A stretch of 50,756 nucleotides of DNA from Patescibacteria group bacterium (GTDB lineage Bacteria > Patescibacteriota > Minisyncoccia > Phycocordibacterales > DATDWN01): the NCBI GenBank assembly GCA_040384485.1, contig JAZKJH010000001.1, forward strand, positions 1 to 50,756. Reading direction: 5' to 3'. The translations under genes were made by a program, and so were the position numbers. Positions 2,790 to 41,690 of this stretch are shown one piece after another. The notes below the pieces were generated by a model. It had not been told where the DNA came from. It saw nothing but the letters and a program-made list of their open reading frames with translations, and did no database searches. The stretch's first letter is position 1, and each line of letters starts with the position of its first letter.

Positions 2790-3683
2790 ATGAAAAATAT
2801 ACAAAAAAGTTTTATTTTACCCCTAATCCTAACTGTAATCATGCTGTTGTTGGCTGGTGGGGGCTTAGCTTTTTATAAGAGTCAAAAAAAGCTTTCTTCT
2901 ATAAATAATCAAGATTTTGCAATAGTAGAAGAAAATAACGAACGACTATCTTTAGCTGATGAAGCGATATACGACACTCTTGCTAAGGGAGCTTATACTC
3001 TAGAAAATGTGTTTATTGGTCCTTGCGGGGAGAGACCATGCGACACAACTCCTGACGAAGTTGGTTGGACTGCAGTTGAAAACAAAGAAGGAGGTTATAG
3101 GATAAATTTGTCCGATACGATTCTGAAGTCATATTTTGGTAATGCTGAAGACAAGGGAACTTATAATCAGATGGGTAAATTTGGTTCCAATCTCTATTTT
3201 GTAAGTGGTGATGAGGGGGCTATCTATGAAGTCAGGTTAAGTGAAAAAAAGATAGTGCGTTTGTATCAGAACAAAAACTTTTTTCCGACTCAGCAGAACG
3301 ATATGTGGTTTAAAGATGGGCAAATTATAACTGTATGGAACAAAGATAAAAATGATCATTCCCCGGAAGGCAGGCTTGTTTCGATTGATCTTTCTACATC
3401 ACCATATAAAACAAGAGTATACGAGTATAATGTTTTAGACGGCTATCCAGATCCGGCGGATCGTCAGTATATTAGCGATTGGTCACAGTATATTAACTTT
3501 ACAGGAGATATTGTAACTGCAAAAGGTAATTCTGACCTGATTTGGATAATACCAAACTACTTTGGTAACGAAATAGGACTAACATGGAGATACCCACTAA
3601 TAAACTTGAAATCCGGGGAAGTACAGTATAAAGCAAAGTATGAAATTAGGGAGGCGGACACGCCAAGTAGTATGTATCTTTAG
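2790..3683 (+). CDS. Hypothetical N-terminally anchored exported protein
   Basis: One N-terminal TM helix, then a beta-rich soluble region with CGERPC; no family recognised. Confidence 0.75.
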   Translation: MKNIQKSFILPLILTVIMLLLAGGGLAFYKSQKKLSSINNQDFAIVEENNERLSLADEAIYDTLAKGAYTLENVFIGPCGERPCDTTPDEVGWTAVENKEGGYRINLSDTILKSYFGNAEDKGTYNQMGKFGSNLYFVSGDEGAIYEVRLSEKKIVRLYQNKNFFPTQQNDMWFKDGQIITVWNKDKNDHSPEGRLVSIDLSTSPYKTRVYEYNVLDGYPDPADRQYISDWSQYINFTGDIVTAKGNSDLIWIIPNYFGNEIGLTWRYPLINLKSGEVQYKAKYEIREADTPSSMYL

Positions 3684-3731
3684 TAAGCAATTTAATTGTT
3701 TAACGACATATAAGTAGGATAGTAGAAAAAT

Positions 3732-4181
3732 ATGGACAAACTAGAAATAAAAAAATTGGCTCAACAAATAGCTCAGGAAGGATATTTGATGAGTCTTGGC
3801 ACATTGGATGATGGCGGGGTGTGGGTAGCCGATGTGATATATATTGCTGATGAAAATTTTAATTTGTATTGGATGTCTTTGCCGAGTGTAAGACACTCAA
3901 AAGCAATAGAGGTAAATAATAAAGTTGCATGCACAGTTACAGTTAGTTGGGAAATTAACAAAGAAAGAGCTTTGCAGATAGAAGGTGTTGCTGAAAAAGT
4001 TGAGGGTCCAATATTTGAATTAGAGAAAAAAATAGAATTAAAAAAGGGGAAAGAGATGCCAAAAGTAGCCGGAGAAGTTTTAGGAAAAGGGCACTCGTGG
4101 TATGTGATACGACCGTCAAAAGTAGAGCTTATTCACAGTGAGTTGTTTGGATATAAAAAACAGATAGTGGATTTGTCTTGA
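3732..4181 (+). CDS. Pyridoxamine 5'-phosphate oxidase-like (FMN split-barrel) protein
   Basis: LMSLGT..GGVWVADVIY, LYWMS...RHSKAIEVNNKVACTV, LQIEG pattern. Confidence 0.85.
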   Translation: MDKLEIKKLAQQIAQEGYLMSLGTLDDGGVWVADVIYIADENFNLYWMSLPSVRHSKAIEVNNKVACTVTVSWEINKERALQIEGVAEKVEGPIFELEKKIELKKGKEMPKVAGEVLGKGHSWYVIRPSKVELIHSELFGYKKQIVDLS

Positions 4182-4281: not shown

Positions 4282-5136
4282 TTGACTTTGAACGAGCTTT
4301 TGCAAGTTGGTGATCGAGTCGTTTTCCAGGTGGACCCTGAACGACGCAGGTGGAGTGGTGACTATGCAGATATTCCCGACGGCACCGTAGGTGTGGTTTG
4401 TGGTTTCGATGATGGAGTGATTTACAGGCCCAGAGTGCAGTCGTTTGGGAGAGAGACAGGCGCCTATTATCGTAGAGGTGGTAGTCGAATCTGGCTACCA
4501 GATGGACGAATTGTGTCTGGGGAACACAACATCAACATGGTCGATCGTGAAGAGGAACGCCGTCGCGACGCAGCAATGCGTAGCGTAAGTGGCGTGCTCG
4601 TGATTCCGGAAATTCGCCTGGGGGATCTTCCTCCAACTTTGTTTTGGGAACAAGACAAGGTTTCGGTGCAAATGCTGGGCGAAAACATTCTTGAGACGAT
4701 GACCGTCGGTCGTATTGATTACGGCAATATGTACAAGCGCCGCATGGACGGTTCACCTTGGCCATTCTACGATTTGAATTATGCCACAGGTGGTTCCACC
4801 GCCGCGGAAGAGTCCTGGATCACACTCATCGAACGAGGTAATCTTTGGAAACTCCATCACAACGAACCTCTCAAGTTTGCCAACTTGAAAGAAGAAGCCG
4901 ATTTCTTTTCGGAAATCGGGGAGGTGGAAGAGGTGCGGAACCCCGCAAACGAACTTTACAGTTGGAGGAAGAATGAAGTGGTTGAGGCTATCAAGACTGG
5001 CCTCGCTCACGGATTTTTTGTCACGGATGAACTGTTCGGTGTGGGACACTACGTCAGTGCCAAGCGTTTTAAAAACGAAGAGTTAGGCGCTCGTGTAGCC
5101 AAGGCAACTCTAGAGGGACTTGGCGTCACGGTATAA
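4282..5136 (+). CDS. Hypothetical accessory protein (284 aa, TTG start)
   Basis: Long ORF with GGAGG at 4270-4274 and a terminator at 5152; visibly GC-richer; LQVGDRVVF and WEQDKV segments suggest SH3-like barrels (inference). Confidence 0.75.
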   Translation: MTLNELLQVGDRVVFQVDPERRRWSGDYADIPDGTVGVVCGFDDGVIYRPRVQSFGRETGAYYRRGGSRIWLPDGRIVSGEHNINMVDREEERRRDAAMRSVSGVLVIPEIRLGDLPPTLFWEQDKVSVQMLGENILETMTVGRIDYGNMYKRRMDGSPWPFYDLNYATGGSTAAEESWITLIERGNLWKLHHNEPLKFANLKEEADFFSEIGEVEEVRNPANELYSWRKNEVVEAIKTGLAHGFFVTDELFGVGHYVSAKRFKNEELGARVAKATLEGLGVTV

Positions 5137-5151
5137 AAAGTTTTTCAATGC

Positions 5152-5187
5152 AGCGTCTGTGGACTTTTGTTCACAGACGCTTTTTTT
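5152..5187 (+). terminator. Intrinsic terminator
   Basis: AGCGTCTGTG/CACAGACGCT stem followed by a T run. Confidence 0.85.
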
Positions 5188-5231
5188 AAATAAAATCGCT
5201 GAGGTATAATATGCTGATTGTTTTGTTTAAT

Positions 5232-5264
5232 AAAAAACCAGTGACGTTTTGCCTCACTGGTTTT
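5232..5264 (-). terminator. Intrinsic terminator of the 5283..5675 gene
   Basis: AAAACCAGTGA/TCACTGGTTTT 11-bp stem with a flanking A run. Confidence 0.75.
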
Positions 5265-5282: not shown

Positions 5283-5675
5283 TTAATCTGCATTGGAAGG
5301 TGTTTTGTATGTACAAGACACTTTGTTTTGACGAAGGTCCTCGACGATTTTATCGACCAGTTCAATGGTCAGAACCTTGGACTGGTCAACTTCCTCACCA
5401 TCTGGGTTAAGTTGTTGTGATGCAAAACTGGTCCGGCTTGCAAAGTCTCGCGCCATTACTTCTTGCAACGATCGAAGAGTCTCCTCAACAGCCTCAATGG
5501 CCTGTTCTGCTGTTTCAGCATAGGGTTGTGAGGTTATCAGTGGCTTAAAGTTGTGTCCGGGACCCCGAAGGATTCCGATGGCAAACTTTTCACCTGCTTT
5601 TTCCTGTCCAATGACAATGTGTAAGTCGTGTGGATTGGTGTAGATTTCGAGCGCGGTGAGCATACGGATACCCAT
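5283..5675 (-). CDS. Hypothetical accessory protein (130 aa)
   Basis: AAGGAG at 5685-5680, own terminator, protein-like composition. Confidence 0.75.
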   Translation of the reverse strand: MGIRMLTALEIYTNPHDLHIVIGQEKAGEKFAIGILRGPGHNFKPLITSQPYAETAEQAIEAVEETLRSLQEVMARDFASRTSFASQQLNPDGEEVDQSKVLTIELVDKIVEDLRQNKVSCTYKTPSNAD

Positions 5676-5764: not shown

Positions 5765-6016
5765 TTATAAGGGAAGATCAGGGAATTCCTTCCGTAAAAT
5801 CTCGGTGTTCAGGTTCATGTCCACTCGAAATCTTTCAGCGAGGTCTACGATTATTTGAGCTTCCATATAGGTCTGGCATTTGGCAATAACCACTCCGTCA
5901 CTAGCCAACACTTCCCATGACCAGTCTCGGTCAATGCGCCAGGGAAGCGGGTGTTCTCGGAGTTGATTTGCAAACACTGGAACCAGTGCTAAGGCATCTC
6001 TCTTTTCAAGTTCCAT
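5765..6016 (-). CDS. Hypothetical accessory protein (~83 aa)
   Basis: AAGGAG at 6028-6023 is best spaced for ATG 6016 (track start GTG 6019); Trp-rich HPLPWRIDRDWSWEV. Confidence 0.7.
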   Translation of the reverse strand: MELEKRDALALVPVFANQLREHPLPWRIDRDWSWEVLASDGVVIAKCQTYMEAQIIVDLAERFRVDMNLNTEILRKEFPDLPL

Positions 6017-6062
6017 CACGGACTCCTTTCTTATATCAACTTACCAGATATCTTTGAAATAA

Positions 6063-6090
6063 ATAAGCGATGTGAGGGCACATCGCTTAT
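6063..6090 (-). terminator. 12-bp hairpin terminator overlapping the stop of the 50-aa ORF
   Basis: ATAAGCGATGTG-AGGG-CACATCGCTTAT perfect stem. Confidence 0.7.
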
Positions 6091-6239
6091 CGGTCGTCTC
6101 GAGCGTTAATAATTATCGCTAAGTCGTGAGCTGTGACTTTGCCGCTCCGTTCTGTTTCGGACAGCATTGCTTTAGCTTTTTTCTGCCATGCACTCTGGTC
6201 AATCATCAGTCGTTTTTCTGAGTCAGGTTTTTGAGGCAT
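6087..6239 (-). CDS. Small hypothetical protein (50 aa; below track cutoff)
   Basis: GGAGGAG at 6248-6242; MPQKPDSEKRLMIDQSAWQKKAKAMLSETERSGKVTAHDLAIIINARDDR*; terminator at the stop. Confidence 0.65.
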   Translation of the reverse strand: MPQKPDSEKRLMIDQSAWQKKAKAMLSETERSGKVTAHDLAIIINARDDR

Positions 6240-9850: not shown

Positions 9851-9890
9851 AGTACCTATCAACTTTTCGAAGTTGGTAGGTACTTTTTTT
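9851..9890 (+). terminator. Intrinsic terminator
   Basis: AGTACCTATCAACTT-TTCG-AAGTTGGTAGGTACT plus T run. Confidence 0.9.
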
Positions 9891-11067: not shown

Positions 11068-11382
11068 ATGGCAAAGAAGCTATACGTTGGAGGTATTTCA
11101 TACTCTACTCCTGAGAGTGGATTGAGAGATGCATTCGCACAAGTTGGTGAAGTTCTTTCAGCAACTATTATCATGGACAAAATGACAGGCCGATCAAAAG
11201 GATTCGGTTTCGTTGAAATGGCTAATGATGCAGAAGCAGATGCAGCTATCGAAAAATGGAATGGCCAGGAACTAGACGGACGAAAGCTTACAGTAAATGA
11301 AGCACGACCTATGGAACCAAGAGCTCCTAGAACAGGTGGAGGTAACTTTGGAGGAAACGACAGAGGAGGCCGAACTTGGTAG
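11068..11382 (+). CDS. RRM-domain RNA-binding protein (Rbp-like) with Gly-rich tail
   Basis: RNP2 KLYVGGI, RNP1 SKGFGFVEM, GRKLTVNEARP. Confidence 0.95.
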   Translation: MAKKLYVGGISYSTPESGLRDAFAQVGEVLSATIIMDKMTGRSKGFGFVEMANDAEADAAIEKWNGQELDGRKLTVNEARPMEPRAPRTGGGNFGGNDRGGRTW

Positions 11383-11457
11383 TCAGCTTGGACAGTCTTA
11401 CGATTGTTTAAAACAAAAAACCGCTTATGGCGGTTTTTTGTATGTTAGAATATATGA

Positions 11458-18219: not shown

Positions 18220-19218
18220 ATGCTTAATCAAACTCAAAAATTAAATCCGAAAATATTTGATAAAGATGTGGAACAAGTTCCCATCCGAAAGGGTTTTGGG
18301 GAAGGCTTGTTAGAAGCTGGGGAGAAAAACTCTCAAGTTGTTGGACTTTGTGCAGACCTTACTGAGTCAACTCAGATGCATTTGTTTAGAAATAAATTTC
18401 CAGAAAGATTTATACAGATGGGTGTTGCAGAACAAAACTTGGCGTCAGTGGCGTCCGGTATGTCAGCAATGGGGAAGATCCCTTTTATGAGTAGTTACGC
18501 AATGTTTTCTCCTGGTAGAAACTGGGAGCAGATACGAACTACTATTTGTTATAACGATAGAGCGGTAATAATAGCTGGAAGTCATGCGGGTATTTCTGTT
18601 GGTCCTGACGGTGGGACTCATCAAGCTATCGAAGACCTAGCAATTACTCGGGTTATTCCAAATATGGTTGTCATTTCCCCTTGTGACAGCATAGAAGCCA
18701 AGAAAGCTACCTTGGCCTCTGCTGAGTTAGGTAAACCGGTTTATATTCGTTTGGCACGTGAAAAAACTCCAGTCATAACTACCACAGATTCTCCATTTGA
18801 AATAGGAAAGGCTCAGCTTTTGTATGGTGAGAGAGAAGACAGGGCAGATGTTGGAATAGTTGCTACCGGAGCCTTGGTTCTCAAAGCTTTGAAAGTTGCA
18901 GAGAGACTAAAAAAAGAAGGAATTGCTGTAAAAGTTTTAAATATTTCAACTATAAAACCTATCGACGATAGAATGTTAGTCCAACTTGCTAAAACAACCG
19001 GCGCAATAGTTACTGTTGAAGAACATCAGGTTGCAGGAGGTTTGGGTTCTGCCGTAGCAGAAGTATTAGTTCAGCAGATGCCTGTTCCAATGGAGTTTAT
19101 TGGTGTCAGAGACTTGTTCGGGCAGTCAGGGAAGCCAGAAGAATTGTTGGAACATTATGGGATATCTGAATCAAACATAGTTTCCGCTTCTAAAAAAGTC
19201 ATAGGTAGAAAAGTCTAA
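18220..19218 (+). CDS. tktB: Transketolase, C-terminal subunit
   Basis: MGVAEQN, VGPDGGTHQAIED, TVEEHQVAGGLG. Confidence 0.95.
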   Translation: MLNQTQKLNPKIFDKDVEQVPIRKGFGEGLLEAGEKNSQVVGLCADLTESTQMHLFRNKFPERFIQMGVAEQNLASVASGMSAMGKIPFMSSYAMFSPGRNWEQIRTTICYNDRAVIIAGSHAGISVGPDGGTHQAIEDLAITRVIPNMVVISPCDSIEAKKATLASAELGKPVYIRLAREKTPVITTTDSPFEIGKAQLLYGEREDRADVGIVATGALVLKALKVAERLKKEGIAVKVLNISTIKPIDDRMLVQLAKTTGAIVTVEEHQVAGGLGSAVAEVLVQQMPVPMEFIGVRDLFGQSGKPEELLEHYGISESNIVSASKKVIGRKV

Positions 19219-19223
19219 AAATA

Positions 19224-19314
19224 CCCTATCTACGTTGTTGGATTTCGGTAAAATAATTTTCATTTTATATTTATAAAGCTCAAATTATTTTCCTCATCCG
19301 CCTAGTATCTAAGG
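19224..19314 (+). repeat. Nested-hairpin intergenic element, copy A
   Basis: ATCTACGTTGTTG...GCTCA...TTTCC...CGCCTAGTATCT; stems AAAATAATTT/AAATTATTTT and TTTAT/ATAAA; homologous to 25118..25207. Confidence 0.7.
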
Positions 19315-19352
19315 CATTTTTAAACTTTTCTGAGAAAATCATTAAAAGTGTT

Positions 19353-19380
19353 AAAGGACGATGTGAGAACATCGTCCTTT
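19353..19380 (-). terminator. 12-bp hairpin terminator of the 19384..19749 gene
   Basis: AAAGGACGATGT-GAGA-ACATCGTCCTTT. Confidence 0.75.
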
Positions 19381-19383
19381 GTA

Positions 19384-19749
19384 TTAAGTAGGGAACTCTA
19401 TCTCATCGAGTTTATAGTCGGCGAGAATTGGTAGCACGATATCAAGGATTGCTGGTGTTGATTTTGTATCAACTTCCAGCATTTTTGTGACGATCTGATC
19501 GATTCTTACTTTGCCAGTGTAGGGCAGACCGTTTTCTTCACAGAAGTATCTTGCACCTTCTATGTAAAACCCAACGTGCTGAACACCAGGCTCTTCTTTG
19601 TAGTTCCTCTCGAGAAGGGTTAGATTTTTGGTGATAGAAACTTCTGTCACGGAGCAATCTTCGGTTTGTGCTCTGATGCAATCCAGTGCACTGTCGTAGC
19701 AAGAAAACGGAACAAATTCACAAATAGCTGGTAGAACCAAACTTCCCAT
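19384..19749 (-). CDS. Hypothetical accessory protein (121 aa)
   Basis: AGAGG upstream (19763-19759), own terminator; no family recognised. Confidence 0.65.
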   Translation of the reverse strand: MGSLVLPAICEFVPFSCYDSALDCIRAQTEDCSVTEVSITKNLTLLERNYKEEPGVQHVGFYIEGARYFCEENGLPYTGKVRIDQIVTKMLEVDTKSTPAILDIVLPILADYKLDEIEFPT

Positions 19750-19801
19750 TATTGTTTACCTCTAAAAATTTATTATAACAAATTTTTTGCAACAACTGCA
19801 A

Positions 19802-20788
19802 TTAAATTTGTTGGATTTTGTATGATTCTGGAGCTTTCGCTAGATAATCTCGGATTTGTTCCATTGTTAGTAAGCCTTTCTGTGCTCCAACTTGCTGTAC
19901 AACAGACATGGAGTTGAGTGGGGCCCATGTCATAGCTGTTTCGAGAGATTCACCAAGAGCTAGTGCTGAAACAATAGTTGAAGCAAAAGCGTCTCCGGCC
20001 CCAGTTCTTTCTATTGGTGTGTGGGGATATACGGGCATAAAAAACATTTTATTTTCTCGAGTATTGTATCCGTAGGCCCCAGCAAATCCATCCGTAATAA
20101 TCACTATTTTAGGGCCTAGATTTGCAAATGCCTTTAGGAGGGTAGGTAAGTCCCTCGTGGATTCATTGAGTATGTGCTGAGCCTCCTCAACATTACAGAA
20201 AAATATTTCGGTATTTTTATATATTTTTTCTAAAACGTCTTTTCCAAGTTTTATCTGAAATGTTCCTGGCTGGAAAGACAGTTTTACTTCAGGATTTTTC
20301 TCTAGGAAATCAACAATTTCCATATGAAAGGGTAGAGAGTTTTCTCCCAAAGAAGAAAGATAAATCCATTTTGGAGATTCTACTTCATCCAAACTATAAT
20401 TGAATTCTTCATGCTTGATTAGGATAGTTCTGTCCATCTTGTACCATAAGACATAGTGGTAGTTTGTTTTTTTGTCGCCGTCAATTCTTATGTAGTCAGT
20501 ATTAACACCTTTTTTCTGTAGCTCAGCCAAACAGTCTTTGCCATTCTGATCCCCCCCTACATAAGAAAGAAGTGCTGAGTTAAGTCCTAATTTGCTCGCA
20601 GACACAGCTGCGTTTGCGCTGTTTCCAACGGCGTTGCAAACCTCCACGGATTCAAAAGGCACCTTGTCTCCATACCGAACAGCTAGCATATCTTCGCCTT
20701 TTGAATTTTTTAATACTTCTGCATCATTTAGTCTGATAAAAGCGTCAACAACCGTATCTCCTATAGCAAGAATATCAATATTTTTCAT
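19802..20788 (-). CDS. PfkB family carbohydrate kinase
   Basis: VGNSANAAVSASKLG; ERTGAGDAF. Confidence 0.93.
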   Translation of the reverse strand: MKNIDILAIGDTVVDAFIRLNDAEVLKNSKGEDMLAVRYGDKVPFESVEVCNAVGNSANAAVSASKLGLNSALLSYVGGDQNGKDCLAELQKKGVNTDYIRIDGDKKTNYHYVLWYKMDRTILIKHEEFNYSLDEVESPKWIYLSSLGENSLPFHMEIVDFLEKNPEVKLSFQPGTFQIKLGKDVLEKIYKNTEIFFCNVEEAQHILNESTRDLPTLLKAFANLGPKIVIITDGFAGAYGYNTRENKMFFMPVYPHTPIERTGAGDAFASTIVSALALGESLETAMTWAPLNSMSVVQQVGAQKGLLTMEQIRDYLAKAPESYKIQQI

Positions 20789-20834
20789 AAAAATAGTATA
20801 GCATGTCTTTTTATGCCTGTGCTACAATATTATT

Positions 20835-21704
20835 ATGACTAAAACATTGAGAGAATGCGTGAACGAGGCAAGAGAAAAAAAGGTAGCCATTGGGCATTTT
20901 AATATTTCAAATCTAGAAGGTTTGTGGGGGGTGTTTAGAGCGGCCCAAGAGTTAAATGTTCCTATTATTATCGGAGTTTCAGAAGGAGAGAGAGATTTTG
21001 TGGGAGTACGACAGGCTGCCGCTTTGGTAAAAAGTATAAGAGAGGAGTTTAACTATCCTATTTTTCTAAACGCAGACCACACTTATTCGTTTGAAAGAGT
21101 AAAGGAAGTAATAGATGCTGGATTTGATTCTGTTATTTTTGATGGAGCAAAACTTTCTTTTGAAGAAAATGTTTCAATAACAAAGCGATGTGTTGACTAT
21201 GCTAGAGCTTCTGGGAGAGATGTTCTTGTAGAAGCAGAGCTCGGCTTTATTGGAACATCTTCAAAAATTCTTGATGAGATACCAGAGGGGGTTTTGCTCG
21301 ACGAAAGCTCACTTACCGATCCAGTAAAAGCAAAAGAGTTTGTGGATGCAACAGGAGTCGATATGCTGGCTCCTGCTATAGGGAACTTTCACGGCATGCT
21401 TCGTGGGGGAGTTGATCCAAAACTAAATATAGAGAGAACAAAAGCTATTAGTGACGCGGTGGGTATTCCACTTGTGCTTCACGGTGGTTCAGGTAACTCG
21501 GAAGATGATTTCAAGCAGGCTATAGCGAACGGAGTGTCTATTGTTCATATAAATACAGAGATTCGTGTGGCTTATAAACAAGGTTTGCAGGCAGGTCTTA
21601 CAGAAAACCCAGATGAAGTTGCACCATATAAGTTTTTGAAACCTTCAGTGAAAGCTGTACAGGATGTGGTTGAGAAAAAGTTAAAATTCTTTAATAACCT
21701 TTAA
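20835..21704 (+). CDS. fba: Class II fructose-bisphosphate aldolase
   Basis: FLNADH, VEAELG, IGNFHG, LVLHGGSG, INTE. Confidence 0.93.
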   Translation: MTKTLRECVNEAREKKVAIGHFNISNLEGLWGVFRAAQELNVPIIIGVSEGERDFVGVRQAAALVKSIREEFNYPIFLNADHTYSFERVKEVIDAGFDSVIFDGAKLSFEENVSITKRCVDYARASGRDVLVEAELGFIGTSSKILDEIPEGVLLDESSLTDPVKAKEFVDATGVDMLAPAIGNFHGMLRGGVDPKLNIERTKAISDAVGIPLVLHGGSGNSEDDFKQAIANGVSIVHINTEIRVAYKQGLQAGLTENPDEVAPYKFLKPSVKAVQDVVEKKLKFFNNL

Positions 21705-21707
21705 AAT

Positions 21708-22682
21708 ATGCCGAAAATTTATATTGCTCAGAGAATTCCAGAGATCGGTATTAAAATGCTACAAGATAAAGGCTACGAGGTAGATTTAAACCCAGACGAA
21801 CACAAAATACTTTCTAAAGAGGAGCTACTCAGTGTTTTGAAAGCAAACTCATATGATGCAGTTTTGAGTTTGCTTACTAACAAAATAGACAGCGAGGTTT
21901 TTGATACATCTCCTACTACCAAAATATTTGCTAACTACGCAGTGGGTTATAACAACATAGATGTAGTTGAGGCCAATAAAAGAGGGATCACTGTCACAAA
22001 CACTCCTGGAGCCCTCACAGACGCTGTAGCTGAGCACACGGTAGCACTGCTTTTGTCAGTTACGCTACGAGTAACAGAATCGGATAAGTACTTGAGGGAG
22101 GGAAAGTTTAAAGGTTGGGAACCGTTGGGATTTTTCGGTCTTGATTTAAAAGGGAAGACTGTGGGAATACTTGGGGCTGGCAGGATAGGTTTCAGGGTCG
22201 CCGAGATACTGAAAAAAGGTTTTGAAATGAACATTGCATATTATGATGTAAAGAAAAGCGAATTTTTCGACAATGATTTAGGTGCCGAGTTTTATGAAAG
22301 TCCTGAGGAGCTTATGAAAAACTCTGATGTTGTTTCTGTGCATGTACCTCTTTTAGACTCTACAAAACATTTGATAAATACAGAAAGGCTCCAGCTGATG
22401 AAGCCGACAGCGTTTTTGCTCAACACATCCCGTGGTCCAGTGGTGGACGAGGCTGCACTAGTAAAAGCTTTGCAAAACAAGATTATTGCTGGAGCAGGGC
22501 TCGATGTATTTGAGAATGAACCCTCTCTAGCCATAGGTTTGGCGGAACTTCCGAATGTAGTGATTACTCCTCATATCGCTTCAGCTACTAAACCAGCTCG
22601 GGAAGGAATGGCTGTGCTTGCCGCTCAAAATATAATAGATTTTCTAGACGGAAAAATACCTCAGAATAAAATAGTCGCCTAG
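21708..22682 (+). CDS. D-2-hydroxyacid dehydrogenase (glyoxylate reductase/D-glycerate dehydrogenase-like)
   Basis: AVGYNNID, GILGAGRIG, NTSRG, GLDVFENEP, TPHIAS. Confidence 0.92.
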   Translation: MPKIYIAQRIPEIGIKMLQDKGYEVDLNPDEHKILSKEELLSVLKANSYDAVLSLLTNKIDSEVFDTSPTTKIFANYAVGYNNIDVVEANKRGITVTNTPGALTDAVAEHTVALLLSVTLRVTESDKYLREGKFKGWEPLGFFGLDLKGKTVGILGAGRIGFRVAEILKKGFEMNIAYYDVKKSEFFDNDLGAEFYESPEELMKNSDVVSVHVPLLDSTKHLINTERLQLMKPTAFLLNTSRGPVVDEAALVKALQNKIIAGAGLDVFENEPSLAIGLAELPNVVITPHIASATKPAREGMAVLAAQNIIDFLDGKIPQNKIVA

Positions 22683-22721
22683 GGCTTGTCATTTTTGATA
22701 TTTTTCTATATACTAGCCCTT

Positions 22722-23357
22722 ATGTTTACTTTAGATGCACAAACAAGAGATAAGTCTCAAAATCTAGATACTCTTAGAAACGAGGGCAAAATGCCTGCAG
22801 TTTTCTACGGTAAGAAAAATGAGTCTACTCCAATAACTATTACTCAAAAAGAATTTATAAAAGTTTGGAAAGCAGCAGGTGAGTCGGGAGTAGTTGCTAT
22901 TAAAACTGACAAAGGTTCTGTTGATACTCTTATAAAAGATATCGCAGTTGACCCTGTAACAGATTTACCAGTACATGCTGACTTTTATGTTTTCGAAAAA
23001 GGAAAGAAAATAGAAGTTTCTGTTCCTCTAGAATTCGTTGGTGTTTCTCCTGCAGTTAAAGACTTGAGTGGAAACTTGGTAAAAGCTCTCCAGGAGCTAA
23101 AAATCTCAGCCGATCCTCAACACATTCCACATGAAATTACTGTAGATATCTCAACTCTTGTTGATTTCGACAGTCAGATAGTAGCTGGAGATCTAAAACT
23201 TCCTACTGGCGTTGAGTTGGTAGAGCTAGCTACAGAAGTAGTTGCAGCGGTTGCTCGTCCTAGAGAAGAAAAAGAGGAAGAGTCAGCACCTGTTGACCTA
23301 TCAGCTATAGAAGTTGAGAAGAAAGGTAAGAAAGAAGAAGAAACTCCTGCCGAATAA
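22722..23357 (+). CDS. rplY: 50S ribosomal protein L25 (CTC type)
   Basis: RNEGKMPAVFYG, PVHADF, VPLEFVGVSPAVK, acidic tail. Start set at ATG 22722. Confidence 0.95.
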   Translation: MFTLDAQTRDKSQNLDTLRNEGKMPAVFYGKKNESTPITITQKEFIKVWKAAGESGVVAIKTDKGSVDTLIKDIAVDPVTDLPVHADFYVFEKGKKIEVSVPLEFVGVSPAVKDLSGNLVKALQELKISADPQHIPHEITVDISTLVDFDSQIVAGDLKLPTGVELVELATEVVAAVARPREEKEEESAPVDLSAIEVEKKGKKEEETPAE

Positions 23358-23436
23358 CAAAAGGCCCCTTACAGGGGCTTTTTCTGTGTAAGAAATGGGT
23401 ACCAAAACCGTCATTTAAAGTGTATAATATTTTAAT

Positions 23437-24798
23437 ATGTTCACAAAAAAACTTGTCATGCTGTTTTTCGTGTTCCTACTCTCGTACGGGAGCGTTTTTG
23501 CTATTACAAAGGAAGAGCAAGAGGCTATTTGGAGAGCAGAGCTTGAACAAACCGAAAAGGACATAGCTGAATGGCAGAAAATACTCAATAGTTCAAAGGC
23601 AAACACAGCTTCTTTGCAACAAGAAGCGGCAACTTTGAATGCCAAAATAAAACAAGCCCAGGCTTTCATTAAAAAAAGAAATATCGAAATAGAAAAGCTT
23701 GGTAAGGAGATTACTCAAAAAACTGCAAATATAAAACAACTGGAAGAAAAGATCGATAGAGGACATGAATCTCTAGCGCAACTGCTTAGAAAAACTAAAG
23801 AGATAAACGAAGCTTCTGTATTAGAGGTAGTTTTGGGTAACCAAGACGTTTCAGAATTCTTTTCTGATATTGACTCCTTCCAGACCATAAGAAAAGACTT
23901 GGCTGTATTGTTTGACGACATACGAGAAAATAAAGCTTTGAATCAGAAAGAAAAGGACCTTTTGGATAAGAAAAAAAACCAGGAGTTAGACACCAAGATG
24001 GCTGCTGAAGCTCAGAAAAAGGAAGTAGAAAAGAATGAAAAAGAAAAGCAGTATCTTATAAAGGTTAATAAAACTCAAGAAAAAACATATGAGCAGGTTC
24101 TTTCAGAAAGACAAAAGAAGGCTGCACAAATCCGAGCCGCTTTGTTTAGTTTGAGAGACTCGGCCGCCATACCTTTCGGTGATGCTTTGAAATACGCAGA
24201 AGCAGCAGGCGCTAAAACTGGTGTACGTCCTGCTTTCCTTTTGGCAATTCTTACTCAAGAAAGTAATCTTGGGGCAAACGTAGGTTCGTGTTTGGTAGGG
24301 AATCTTCAGAATGGAGACGGAGCAGGAAAGAATACTGGTAACCCATTCCAGCAAGTTATGAAAGCTCCTAGAGACACTGTGCCTTTTGAAACAATAACAA
24401 CTCGTTTGGGCAGAGATTGGAAAACAACTCCGGTATCTTGTCCTCCTGGAGCAACATATTATTCCGGCAGAGGCTTTGGAGGAGGAATGGGGCCATCACA
24501 GTTCATACCTTCTACTTGGGAGTTGTTTAAAGGAAAGGTGGGAGCAGCTGTTGGTGTGGGTGGAGACTATGCAGACCCGTGGAACCCGGAACACGCTTTT
24601 ATGGCGACTGCTATATATATGAAGGAGCTAGGTGCTCAGTCAGGTTCCTATACTGCAGAGAGAAATGCTGCCTGTAAATACTACTCTGGTTCAGCTTGTT
24701 CATCTACTCGAAAACCACCAAACATGTTCTACGGTAACAGCGTTATGACTATTTCTGAGAATATCCAGACAACTATGATAGATCCTTTGAAAATATAG
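23437..24798 (+). CDS. Exported coiled-coil protein with C-terminal lytic transglycosylase (MltB/SLT-like) domain
   Basis: Signal peptide; ~220-aa coiled coil; ILTQES; GGMGPSQFIPSTW; ADPWNP. Confidence 0.85.
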   Translation: MFTKKLVMLFFVFLLSYGSVFAITKEEQEAIWRAELEQTEKDIAEWQKILNSSKANTASLQQEAATLNAKIKQAQAFIKKRNIEIEKLGKEITQKTANIKQLEEKIDRGHESLAQLLRKTKEINEASVLEVVLGNQDVSEFFSDIDSFQTIRKDLAVLFDDIRENKALNQKEKDLLDKKKNQELDTKMAAEAQKKEVEKNEKEKQYLIKVNKTQEKTYEQVLSERQKKAAQIRAALFSLRDSAAIPFGDALKYAEAAGAKTGVRPAFLLAILTQESNLGANVGSCLVGNLQNGDGAGKNTGNPFQQVMKAPRDTVPFETITTRLGRDWKTTPVSCPPGATYYSGRGFGGGMGPSQFIPSTWELFKGKVGAAVGVGGDYADPWNPEHAFMATAIYMKELGAQSGSYTAERNAACKYYSGSACSSTRKPPNMFYGNSVMTISENIQTTMIDPLKI

Positions 24799-24845
24799 CT
24801 CATTTGCAAAATTGGAGACTTTTTGGTAGAGTAGGGAAACTAAAA

Positions 24846-25112
24846 ATGAAAAAAGATATACACCCAAAGAATTATAGACCAGTATTATTCGTTGATAACT
24901 CAAACAACGAGGAATTTATCCTATCTTCTAGTGTAGCAACTGGAGAAACTGCTAAAGCAAAAGATGGAAAAGAATATCCACTTTTCAGACTTGAAATCTC
25001 AAGTACATCACACCCTTTTTATACTGGAAACGAAAAGTCACTAGATACCGCTGGAAGAGCTGAGAAGTTCCGTGCTCGAGTAGCAACTGCTAAAGCTAAG
25101 AAAACTAAATAA
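24846..25112 (+). CDS. rpmE: 50S ribosomal protein L31, type B (Cys-free)
   Basis: MKKDIHPKNYRPV, EISSTSHPFYTG, GRAEKF. Confidence 0.95.
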   Translation: MKKDIHPKNYRPVLFVDNSNNEEFILSSSVATGETAKAKDGKEYPLFRLEISSTSHPFYTGNEKSLDTAGRAEKFRARVATAKAKKTK

Positions 25113-25117
25113 ACCAA

Positions 25118-25207
25118 CCCCATCTGCGGTGTTGCTGTTTAAGTTTATTCGTTCACCGTATTTTTATACGGCTCACTCATAAACTTTCCAGCGCCTAGCA
25201 TATGGGG
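25118..25207 (+). repeat. Nested-hairpin intergenic element, copy B
   Basis: CCCCATCTGCGGTGTTG...GCTCA...TTTCC...CGCCTAGCATATGGGG; stems AAGTTTAT/ATAAACTT and CCGTAT/ATACGG. Confidence 0.7.
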
Positions 25208-25271
25208 CTGTTTTATTTGTTTTCTATGTGGTACATTTATTTTACCTATTTTAGAGGAACAAAAACACTCC

Positions 25272-35070: not shown

Positions 35071-35116
35071 CTAAGTGTTAAATAAAATAAAAACCGCCTG
35101 ATGGCGGTTTTTATTT

Positions 35117-35344
35117 TTAAGCTTCTGTGTGCGGTACCTCGTGGACTTTCGTGTCCGGTTTGTTCGGAACTATCAAAATAGCTATGATGTAACCAATAGC
35201 AGCTGGCACGATAGCCGTAACTACAGCTAGGATAATGTACCCCAAACGTAGGATTGTAGAATCAATATCAAAGTATTCTCCAAGTCCTCCTATAACTCCA
35301 GCCACAACTTTGTCCTCTTTGCTTTTGTATAATTTTTTTGTCAT
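35117..35344 (-). CDS. pspC: PspC domain protein
   Basis: KKLYKSKEDKVVAGVIGGLGEYFDIDSTILRL. Confidence 0.9.
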   Translation of the reverse strand: MTKKLYKSKEDKVVAGVIGGLGEYFDIDSTILRLGYIILAVVTAIVPAAIGYIIAILIVPNKPDTKVHEVPHTEA

Positions 35345-41352: not shown

Positions 41353-41580
41353 ATGGTAGTACGAATGCGACACACAAAAAGCCAGCGAAACAGGACACGA
41401 TCTCATCATCGTTTGGTTAAACCTGCTGTAACAGTAGATGCGGAGACAAAAGTTCCACACCTACGACACAGAGCGTCTCTTGTAACTGGTAAATATAAAG
41501 GAAGAGTTGTAATAGACCTTCAGAAGAAACTAGATAAGAAAACCAAAAAAGCGAAAGCGGCGAGTAAAGAAGGAAGGTAA
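41353..41580 (+). CDS. rpmF: 50S ribosomal protein L32 (Cys-free)
   Basis: MVVRMRHTKSQRNRTRSH...HLRHRA...GKYKGRVV. Confidence 0.9.
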   Translation: MVVRMRHTKSQRNRTRSHHRLVKPAVTVDAETKVPHLRHRASLVTGKYKGRVVIDLQKKLDKKTKKAKAASKEGR

Positions 41581-41612
41581 AAAATAATTCACCAGAGATG
41601 GTGAATTATTTT
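41581..41612. terminator. Intrinsic terminator after rpmF
   Basis: AAAATAATTCACCA-GAGA-TGGTGAATTATTTT. Confidence 0.8.
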
Positions 41613-41690
41613 TTATGTGGATAGTATCGGAGGAATTTTATTGATAATAAAAATATTGCCTGTTATACTAAATATATAGTTATTTAAACA

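Follow-up and report, generated by a model that had tools for sequence, protein, structure and literature searches.

Antisense-polarised rod hairpins at gene ends in Patescibacteria and distant phyla: a candidate structure-dependent mobile repeat

Several classes of dispersed palindromic repeats are known in bacteria, and three of them come close to the subject of this study, a hairpin element found in two copies (A and B) in 50,756 nucleotides (nt) of DNA from a Patescibacteria group bacterium (assembly GCA_040384485.1, contig JAZKJH010000001.1, positions 1 to 50,756), the whole of which is called the window below. The ERIC/IRU elements of enterobacteria (~127-bp imperfect palindromes) are rod hairpins of ~125 nt dispersed in transcribed intergenic regions beside genes; compensatory changes keep their structure, they have no known transposase and their presence varies among relatives. 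The REP/REPIN-RAYT systems comprise many-copy extragenic palindromes located after stop codons, whose populations evolve by compensatory change, and which are believed to be active, and to spread, in the form of folded single-stranded DNA (ssDNA). The Correia/NEMIS, RUP and BOX-type repeats, which are similar to miniature inverted-repeat transposable elements (MITEs), are non-autonomous, measure ~100-150 bp and form long hairpins in or near transcripts, where they can affect termination or processing. The element resembles, or may resemble, each of them in these respects. It belongs to a family whose structure is conserved on the strand complementary to the mRNA of the neighbouring gene, and which we tentatively take to be a mobile repeat.

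The original prediction, made from the window itself, described two diverged copies of a nested hairpin of ~90 nt in a common orientation (19224-19314 and 25118-25207), each 5 nt past a stop codon. Both copies lie where it placed them, and all the blocks it listed as shared are present (ATCT(A/G)CG(T/G)TGTTG, TTC(A/G)TT, GCTCA, TTTCC and CGCCTAG(T/C)AT(C/A)T..GG). Copy A follows the C-terminal half of a split transketolase (18220-19218; Pfam Transket_pyr/Transketolase_C), and copy B lies between rpmE (ribosomal protein L31, 24804-25112; Pfam Ribosomal_L31 matched in locus L001) and prfA. The two are 52% identical overall under the family model. Among its 46 pairs, 19 are unchanged, 22 are changed on both sides and still pair, 1 is changed on one side and 4 fail, which bears out the claim that the stems differ yet pair. 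A structure-selected, dispersed multi-copy family, and not a recent duplication, is supported. Both copies fold beyond dinucleotide shuffles on either strand (z -3.2 to -8.6). When more flank is folded, each becomes a single unbranched hairpin of ~125 nt, so that ~90 nt was too short although the location was right. The feet of these hairpins contain the last 3-4 codons and the stop of tkt or rpmE, and A-rich and U-rich tracts flank both copies, giving U-rich tails on both strands. The short limits had caused this stop-codon overlap and these tracts to be missed, and the reported lack of a clean U tract applies to the narrower limits only. The strand also has to be reversed with respect to the prediction, since the better-folding, selected strand is the minus strand in both copies (-27.1 vs -17.2 kcal/mol for A, -45.2 vs -35.8 kcal/mol for B). 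The features of the two copies are as follows.

19207-19331, minus (folded strand): copy A, full rod-shaped hairpin of 125 nt (outermost enclosing pair of the minimum-free-energy fold; covariance model match 19196-19337, minus)
19216-19218, plus: stop of the transketolase C-terminal subunit gene, inside the foot of hairpin A (open reading frame (ORF) list, Pfam, fold)
19228-19240, minus: copy A, opposite loop strand and tandem G.A block CAACAACGUAGAU (plus strand ATCTACGTTGTTG)
19264-19277, minus: copy A, apical stem-loop, an AU-rich variant of the family CCGUAC-loop-GUACGG
19299-19305, minus: copy A, conserved internal-loop strand CUAGGCG (plus: CGCCTAG), set by the scan pattern and YNAGRCG in diverged copies
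25099-25225, minus (folded strand): copy B, full rod-shaped hairpin of 127 nt (fold; covariance model match 25090-25230, minus)
25110-25112, plus: stop of rpmE (L31), inside the foot of hairpin B (ORF list, Pfam, fold)
25122-25134, minus: copy B, loop and G.A block CAACACCGCAGAU
25156-25171, minus: copy B, apical stem-loop CCGUAU-loop-AUACGG, with the GAGUGAG / UGAACGA tandem-G.A collar on both sides
25192-25198, minus: copy B, conserved loop strand CUAGGCG
25203-25225, plus: copy B, outer 3' arm and U-rich tract GGGGCTGTTTTATTTGTTTTCT, homologous to the plain rpmE terminator of locus L122

The family extends well beyond the window. A strict pattern (ATCTNCGNTGTTG-N25-50-GCTCA-N8-30-CGCCTAG), scanned over one genome per species, gave at least 118 loci. 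Two of them, in Pirellula (L039) and Lysobacterales (L075), are chance motif matches that the covariance model did not recover, and the remaining listed loci are hairpins of common design. Among the matches listed, the Patescibacteria are represented by metagenome-assembled genomes (MAGs) of Zambryskibacteria, Kaiserbacteria and Paceibacterota type, and the other hosts are Ca. Limiplasma and other Clostridia, Negativicutes (including the isolate Anaerospora hongkongensis), Geobacteraceae, Dormibacterota and a few MAGs titled Proteobacteria; these listed matches cover at least three named phyla besides Patescibacteria. The original prediction had proposed a covariance model, and the one built here (116 members) gave further copies; its members show strong covariation. 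In the 50.7-kb window it found copies A and B (112.6 and 120.7 bits, E ~1e-26 to 1e-28) and no other real match. In 713 kb of fetched loci it found 129 matches, including ~28 diverged copies beyond the strict pattern, with up to 3-6 copies per 8 kb in some genomes. In the 95 kb of loci fetched by their PrfA, and not by the motif, there are 4 matches, or ~1 per 24 kb, and the copy number is estimated at a few dozen per Mb genome. Identity between the PrfA of the window and Zambryskibacteria/Parcubacteria proteins is 80-93%, and some of these come from MAGs titled 'uncultured Ca. Saccharibacteria' by NCBI. Loci carrying this title (e.g. L048, L052, L072 from CAZQVT010000001.1) have names that look unreliable, and the PrfA protein P0009 is 86% identical to the Zambryskibacteria-like PrfA of the window. 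The spread of the family within Patescibacteria may therefore be narrower than the titles suggest.

No match to the element was found in the collections searched for known families. At the gathering threshold, Rfam 15 returned two tRNAs only for the window; at E<=10, copies A and B gave low-scoring matches only, the single one below E 0.1 being STnc400 (E 0.013), which falls outside the hairpin at 19320-19390. Copies from other phyla gave nothing at the gathering threshold or at E<=0.1, and none of the Rfam 15 families, including the hammerhead, twister and hairpin-type ribozymes, SRP and 6S, was matched. The literature, searched by exact sequence strings and by topic, yielded no description of the element, the same pattern had 0 matches in viral contigs, and plasmids contained no match to the element. 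The family is apparently large, uncatalogued and undescribed.

Covariation is strong in the alignment of 116 members: the rod is paired in 87.7% of cells, compared with 35-41% when the partners are slid by 1-3 columns, double changes occur in 39 of the 46 pairs, and the covariation score of 0.579 (0.195 in column shuffles) is attained by 0 of 500 shuffles. The element is a rod of ~125-140 nt whose selected strand is complementary to the mRNA of the neighbouring gene. Read on this strand from the outside in, it consists of a variable outer stem, an A/U-rich UAAAAU/AUUUUA segment, a stem of ~8 bp and a tandem G.A/A.G, followed by a 3-bp stem (UGC/GCA or UAC/GUA), a near-invariant internal loop (5'-UAGGC / 5'-AACAAC), a 4-bp stem, a second tandem G.A and a variable stem of 6-7 bp; at the apex, a GAGUGAG / UGAACGA collar with two more tandem G.A carries a CCGUAC-loop-GUACGG tip. 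The four tandem 5'-GA/3'-AG sites are conserved (of 116 copies, outer GA 109 and AG 100; inner sites 53-95). The internal loop was fixed by the search pattern; in the diverged copies recovered by the covariance model it loosens only to ~YNAGRCG / CAACAARG, and the pair at its edge toggles jointly between U.C and G.A. Conservation is thus internal, and the termini are the most variable part, with 4-6 pair types at each of the outer stem columns 9-17/134-142. In one locus (L036:7354-7576, minus, 72 bits), ~80 nt of small hairpins are inserted in the apical loop, which suggests that the tip tolerates, or attracts, nested insertions.

The polarity of the fold is evident from the pairs themselves. 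Paired positions hold 524 G-U or U-G cells as opposed to 105 A-C or C-A, and 253 G.A as opposed to 55 C.U. The strand antisense to the gene, which is purine-rich, folds better in 113 of the 116 copies, with a mean of -53.6 vs -38.4 kcal/mol (a difference of ~15). The ordinary terminators of the window are near strand-symmetric (0.5-5 kcal/mol apart, usually favouring the sense strand), and the asymmetry is therefore specific to the element. A conserved fold on the strand opposite the gene would make it neither a plain terminator nor an ordinary RNA of the 3' untranslated region (UTR). Other origins of the pattern were considered. A mutational bias would not account for the asymmetry, as deamination on an exposed sense strand predicts the opposite pattern and could not make conserved G.A. 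On inspection, the UGA-stem-GAA beside the tip recalls a hammerhead, but the rod is unbranched and has no Rfam match; a K-turn appears improbable, as no tandem G.A has a 3-nt bulge next to it; and a small ORF running through the element does not seem to explain it, given that its length and frame vary while the stems covary.

The position of the copies relative to genes is also constrained. With the motif read in the direction of the original prediction, ~100 of 114 copies have a same-strand gene on their 5' side, with 4-25 nt between its stop and the ATCT block, which places the stop within the hairpin or at its foot. The distance from stop to motif peaks at 9 nt, where the UAA comes from the element's own UAAAAU, and at 17-22 nt. 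This polarity is shared by ~88% of copies (~12:1), and the 8 copies of opposite polarity likewise abut a stop codon. The gene on the other side, at a variable distance, is co-directional in 57 cases and convergent in 36. The rule concerning the stop codon is valid for the Limiplasma and Negativicutes copies too. In all, 112 Pfam families, most of them housekeeping, are represented among the upstream genes, including RNase Y (5), EF-Tu (3), transketolase (3), L10 (3) and UppP (3), and also FtsZ, GyrB, sigma-70, S12, aminoacyl-tRNA synthetases and glycogen phosphorylase. Taken as a gauge of replication as opposed to transcription polarity, the GC skew at the loci is positive in 85 and negative in 24, with 14 discordant cases split 7/7; over 8 kb the skew tracks the coding strand and so does not distinguish the two. 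The 12:1 polarity could come from the mechanism of insertion or from selection against a strongly folded strand in abundant mRNAs.

The relatives of the window show that occupation of the sites changes. The rpmE-prfA spacer was compared in five loci ranked by PrfA identity (L120, the closest, 93%; L121 87%; L122 84%; L123 82%; L124 79%). Comparing rpmE 3' ends was a check suggested with the prediction, and it gave a mixed picture: the element is present in the window, L121 and L124, and other structures are found in L120, L122 and L123. The spacer of L122 contains a plain terminator only. Window positions 25203-25220 are homologous to its 3' arm and U tract (GGGGCTATTTTATTTGG), which places the core, at rpmE, within the apex of a terminator that was there before. 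An insertion of 176 nt in L120 (4009-4184) fills exactly the interval from the fba stop to the following ATG, which is 3 nt long in the window (21705-21707) and 10 nt in L121; this insertion contains a diverged family copy (67.5 bits) and a promoter-like TGCTATAAT of the extended -10 kind, and it resembles a cassette of terminator plus promoter that would divide an operon. When copies that share a gene end are compared across genomes, they are not each other's closest kin. The identity of copy A is 83% with a copy that follows a TPM-domain gene in another genome, and only ~50% with the tkt-adjacent copies of L037 and L083; orthology between copies sharing a gene end was accordingly rejected, their nearest neighbours lying elsewhere. 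One in-situ compensatory change was found between near-identical orthologous copies (L030/L067 vs L107). Site turnover and non-orthologous copies point to gain, loss and replacement, that is, some mobility or exchange of modules, and these sequence comparisons speak against simple vertical descent at fixed sites.

A different, unrelated element occupies the rpmE-prfA spacer in L120 (7603-7752) and L123 (9846-10000). It is a multi-copy, Y-shaped structure with its core within an outer stem TAACGAA...TTCGTT followed by Ts, and it also folds better antisense to rpmE (-54.6 vs -43.7 and -50.6 vs -42.0 kcal/mol). Further copies of it are found at L113:3091-3180, L124:5000-5052, L048:4641-4743, L121:395-477 and L032:4109-4169.

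Whether the element might act in the sense strand, as a 3'-UTR RNA or an elaborated intrinsic terminator that stabilises or ends the upstream mRNA, can be judged from these data and from the order of signals around it. It sits directly past the stop in the orientation of the gene, the window copies have U-rich tails, and the rpmE core lies in the apex of an older terminator. In locus L084 of Limiplasma, the glgP stop is followed by the element and then by a canonical bidirectional terminator, which places the element within the sense 3' UTR, where it is certainly transcribed in sense, and means that transcripts of the folded polarity would be stopped just short of it. The 3'-UTR RNA put forward in the original prediction is nevertheless not supported by the pairing, since the mRNA-sense strand is recurrently mismatched (C.A, U.C, C.U), is weaker by the mean 15 kcal/mol given above and, for copy B, scores 18.9 bits with the covariance model as against 120.7 on the minus strand. 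Copies between co-transcribed genes (rplJ-rplL) oppose efficient termination in sense, and the terminator scan made no call at either window copy. We consider this explanation quite improbable. In the window copies, as in bidirectional intrinsic terminators, a long hairpin flanked by A and U tracts comes directly past the stop, and the outer arm at rpmE is homologous to that of a plain terminator, yet the stem of the element is 5x longer, with conserved internal loops and strongly strand-asymmetric pairing. U tracts are absent from both strands of the GC-rich copies in Limiplasma and Negativicutes, and in L084 a separate terminator follows; the element therefore seems not to be an intrinsic terminator in general. 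From their flanking tracts, the AT-rich window copies may double as bidirectional terminators.

It can also be asked whether the copies are independently transcribed small RNA (sRNA) genes, or whether the minority in sense orientation are sRNAs derived from 3' UTRs that would pair with the complementary loops of mRNAs bearing antisense copies. The covariation is RNA-like (G-U, tandem G.A, a purine-rich folded strand) and ~8 copies are in gene-sense polarity directly past a stop. However, no -10-like peak occurs at a fixed distance upstream in the folded orientation, no promoter was called beside either window copy, the hairpin is often only 10-40 nt from the next co-directional start, and in L084 a terminator lies immediately upstream. 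Such genes appear even less probable than a sense 3'-UTR function.

An antisense RNA offers another explanation. As a host cis-element, the hairpin would act as a directional guard at the 3' end of the gene: it would fold in transcripts entering from downstream, through convergent read-through or from divergent or spurious promoters, and terminate or process them, and the weaker complementary hairpin would let, or help, the sense transcript end. Such a guard accounts for the selected strand, the anchoring to stop codons, the polarity and the bias towards housekeeping genes; it is also consistent with the A- and U-rich flanks of the window copies on both strands, with the back-to-back copies of some intergenic regions, and with near-orthologous copies that differ mostly by wobble-preserving or compensatory steps. 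It does not sit well with the GC-rich copies devoid of U tracts, nor with L084, where the outer bidirectional terminator would halt antisense transcripts first. Moreover, a simple hairpin would suffice for this purpose, the conserved loops would need a dedicated factor, and presence or absence shifts between close relatives. We regard the guard as unlikely. Back-to-back copies are seen, for instance, in the Kaiserbacteria-type locus L107, which has five copies in 8 kb, at 3510-3652 (-), 3680-3821 (+), 5106-5248 (-), 5284-5424 (+) and 6011-6146 (-); in two back-to-back pairs the copies face away from each other, and one of these pairs is seemingly in a divergent promoter region and not after stops.

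When set against the described mobile or repeated elements, the family would seem to function most like ERIC/IRU, REPIN and Correia-type elements, yet it lacks what defines each of them. Complete E. coli genomes carry ERIC copies, and copy B has no blastn match in 5,426 of these genomes, so that no sequence similarity to ERIC/IRU is apparent; the new family is in addition multi-phylum, with a polarity fixed in ~88% of copies, a foot on the stop codon, four tandem G.A and invariant asymmetric loops. REPs measure 20-40 nt, have a conserved 5' GTAG, are typically species-specific and often occur as inverted doublets, whereas the present element is one hairpin of ~125 nt with loops shared across phyla and no conserved GTAG at its foot, GUAG occurring only as the U variant of CGCAGAU in 16 of 116 copies. 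The Correia/NEMIS, RUP and BOX-type repeats have conserved terminal inverted repeats and duplications of TA or other targets. Unlike a MITE derived from a DDE transposase, the family has variable termini, and the one clean comparison of a filled and an empty site, the L120 insertion, reveals neither a target duplication nor a direct repeat at the junctions. The PATE elements derived from IS200/IS605 have distinct left- and right-end hairpins and a fixed target of 4-5 nt located 5' of the left end, and their active strand lies on the lagging-strand template. The new family forms one continuous hairpin without a fixed flanking tetranucleotide, and its folded strand is antisense to mostly co-oriented genes. 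The general description given in the original prediction, a REP/MITE-like single-strand element, remains the best available, but neither a strict MITE nor a REP anatomy is found.

The integron attC site merits separate mention, since in its established features it lies at the 3' end of ORFs, is functional as a folded antisense strand and conserves a structure with free stem sequence and unpaired bases. It could be envisaged that a tyrosine recombinase, or some other site-specific enzyme, likewise uses the hairpin as a recombination site in folded single-stranded form, on the model of the attC bottom strand and of the hairpin attP known from CTX phage. The family, however, has no R''/R' or L''/L' boxes and no complementary RYYYAAC/GTTRRRY sequences: CUAGGCG and CAACAACG face each other unpaired, with AAC on the 3' side of the folded strand, and the conserved loop strands do not pair together. 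Its copies are dispersed after core housekeeping genes and not in cassette arrays, and an integrase was not seen in any fetched locus. This is the least probable of the explanations examined here, and a very unlikely one.

We propose, with a rough probability of 0.4, that the family is a mobile repeat which depends on its structure, is not autonomous and works much as REPIN, ERIC or Correia elements do. The conserved loops and the GUAC stem would enable a trans-acting enzyme to recognise the selected strand in a single-stranded copy. This intermediate would more likely be ssDNA than RNA, because RNA of the folded polarity is probably rarely made. The copy would land in one polarity, either in the 3' UTR close to a stop codon or in the apex of an existing terminator hairpin, and would thereafter be carried as an extension of that hairpin. 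In the AT-rich genome of the window, an element flanked by A/U tracts would probably serve as a bidirectional terminator as well.

Several observations weigh against such a mobile repeat. No transposase, reverse transcriptase or recombinase was seen linked to any copy in the fetched DNA. The HUH/RAYT partner suggested as possible in the original prediction would be encoded in the same genome, usually flanked by REPs; in the called genes of L120-L124 and in the 10 unannotated ORFs of the window, the 50.7 kb covered from this genome, no RAYT domain (Y1 HUH, PF01797) was found. As the original prediction held for the window, these 10 ORFs contain no transposase by Pfam (the remaining window ORFs were not scanned). 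An autonomous version in the form of orphan half-elements flanking a gene was not found in 1 Mb of loci. To this must be added the lack of conserved termini and of a target duplication. Elements of IS200/IS605 type insert their active strand into the lagging-strand template, and the polarity observed here would be opposite to this if the genes run with replication. Sequence alone does not separate ssDNA from RNA. Lastly, near-invariant loops across phyla and compensation in situ (L030/L067 vs L107) fit a function for the host equally well or better.

This last point leads to a broader alternative, namely that the family is not selfish DNA but a host-maintained, polarity-defined gene-end signal common to distant phyla. 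A conserved protein would recognise the rod, with its four tandem G.A and two invariant loops, in single-stranded form and antisense polarity, either on the template strand of the DNA or on an antisense transcript. The role of the signal could be to stop or process transcription entering essential genes, or to manage replication or topology at 3' ends. We hold this to be doubtful, though less so than the antisense guard as such. If it were true, the Y-shaped family, with the same sites and the same strand preference, would suggest that antisense-strand modules at gene ends are a general, unrecognised class in Patescibacteria.

If the proposal of a structure-dependent mobile repeat holds, the family would be among the more widespread uncharacterised structured nucleic-acid motifs in bacteria. 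Selection on the strand opposite the mRNA, at the exact ends of housekeeping genes, is hard to fit into current categories. The covariance model, the conserved loops and a cultivable carrier, Anaerospora hongkongensis DSM 15969, with copies in loci L017 and L081, provide a handle on how small genomes punctuate their genes, and would allow signals at the level of ssDNA or antisense RNA at gene ends to be tested, together with the spread of non-autonomous repeats in which no transposase is visible. On a practical level, unmasked copies create spurious small ORFs and confuse the prediction of terminators and sRNAs in Patescibacteria MAGs.

Some further features of the loci may be recorded. Short, ordinary hairpins flanked by A/T tracts, of the bidirectional-terminator type (9851-9884, 11413-11440, 19352-19380, 35084-35117 and 41577-41615), end many other genes of the window, including gyrB, which elsewhere is followed by the family element. 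Convergent with copy A is an ORF of 121 aa (19384-19749, minus) that matches nothing in Pfam and seems to be missing from L120. In Ca. Limiplasma, L004:1757-1879 (+) resembles the leader of ribosomal protein L20, at a score below threshold (46.2 bits, gathering 58.7, E 3e-6). The window also encodes, at 11068-11382 (+), a 104-aa protein with an RRM_1 domain (E 8e-21), a small single-strand nucleic-acid binder of a type uncommon in bacteria.

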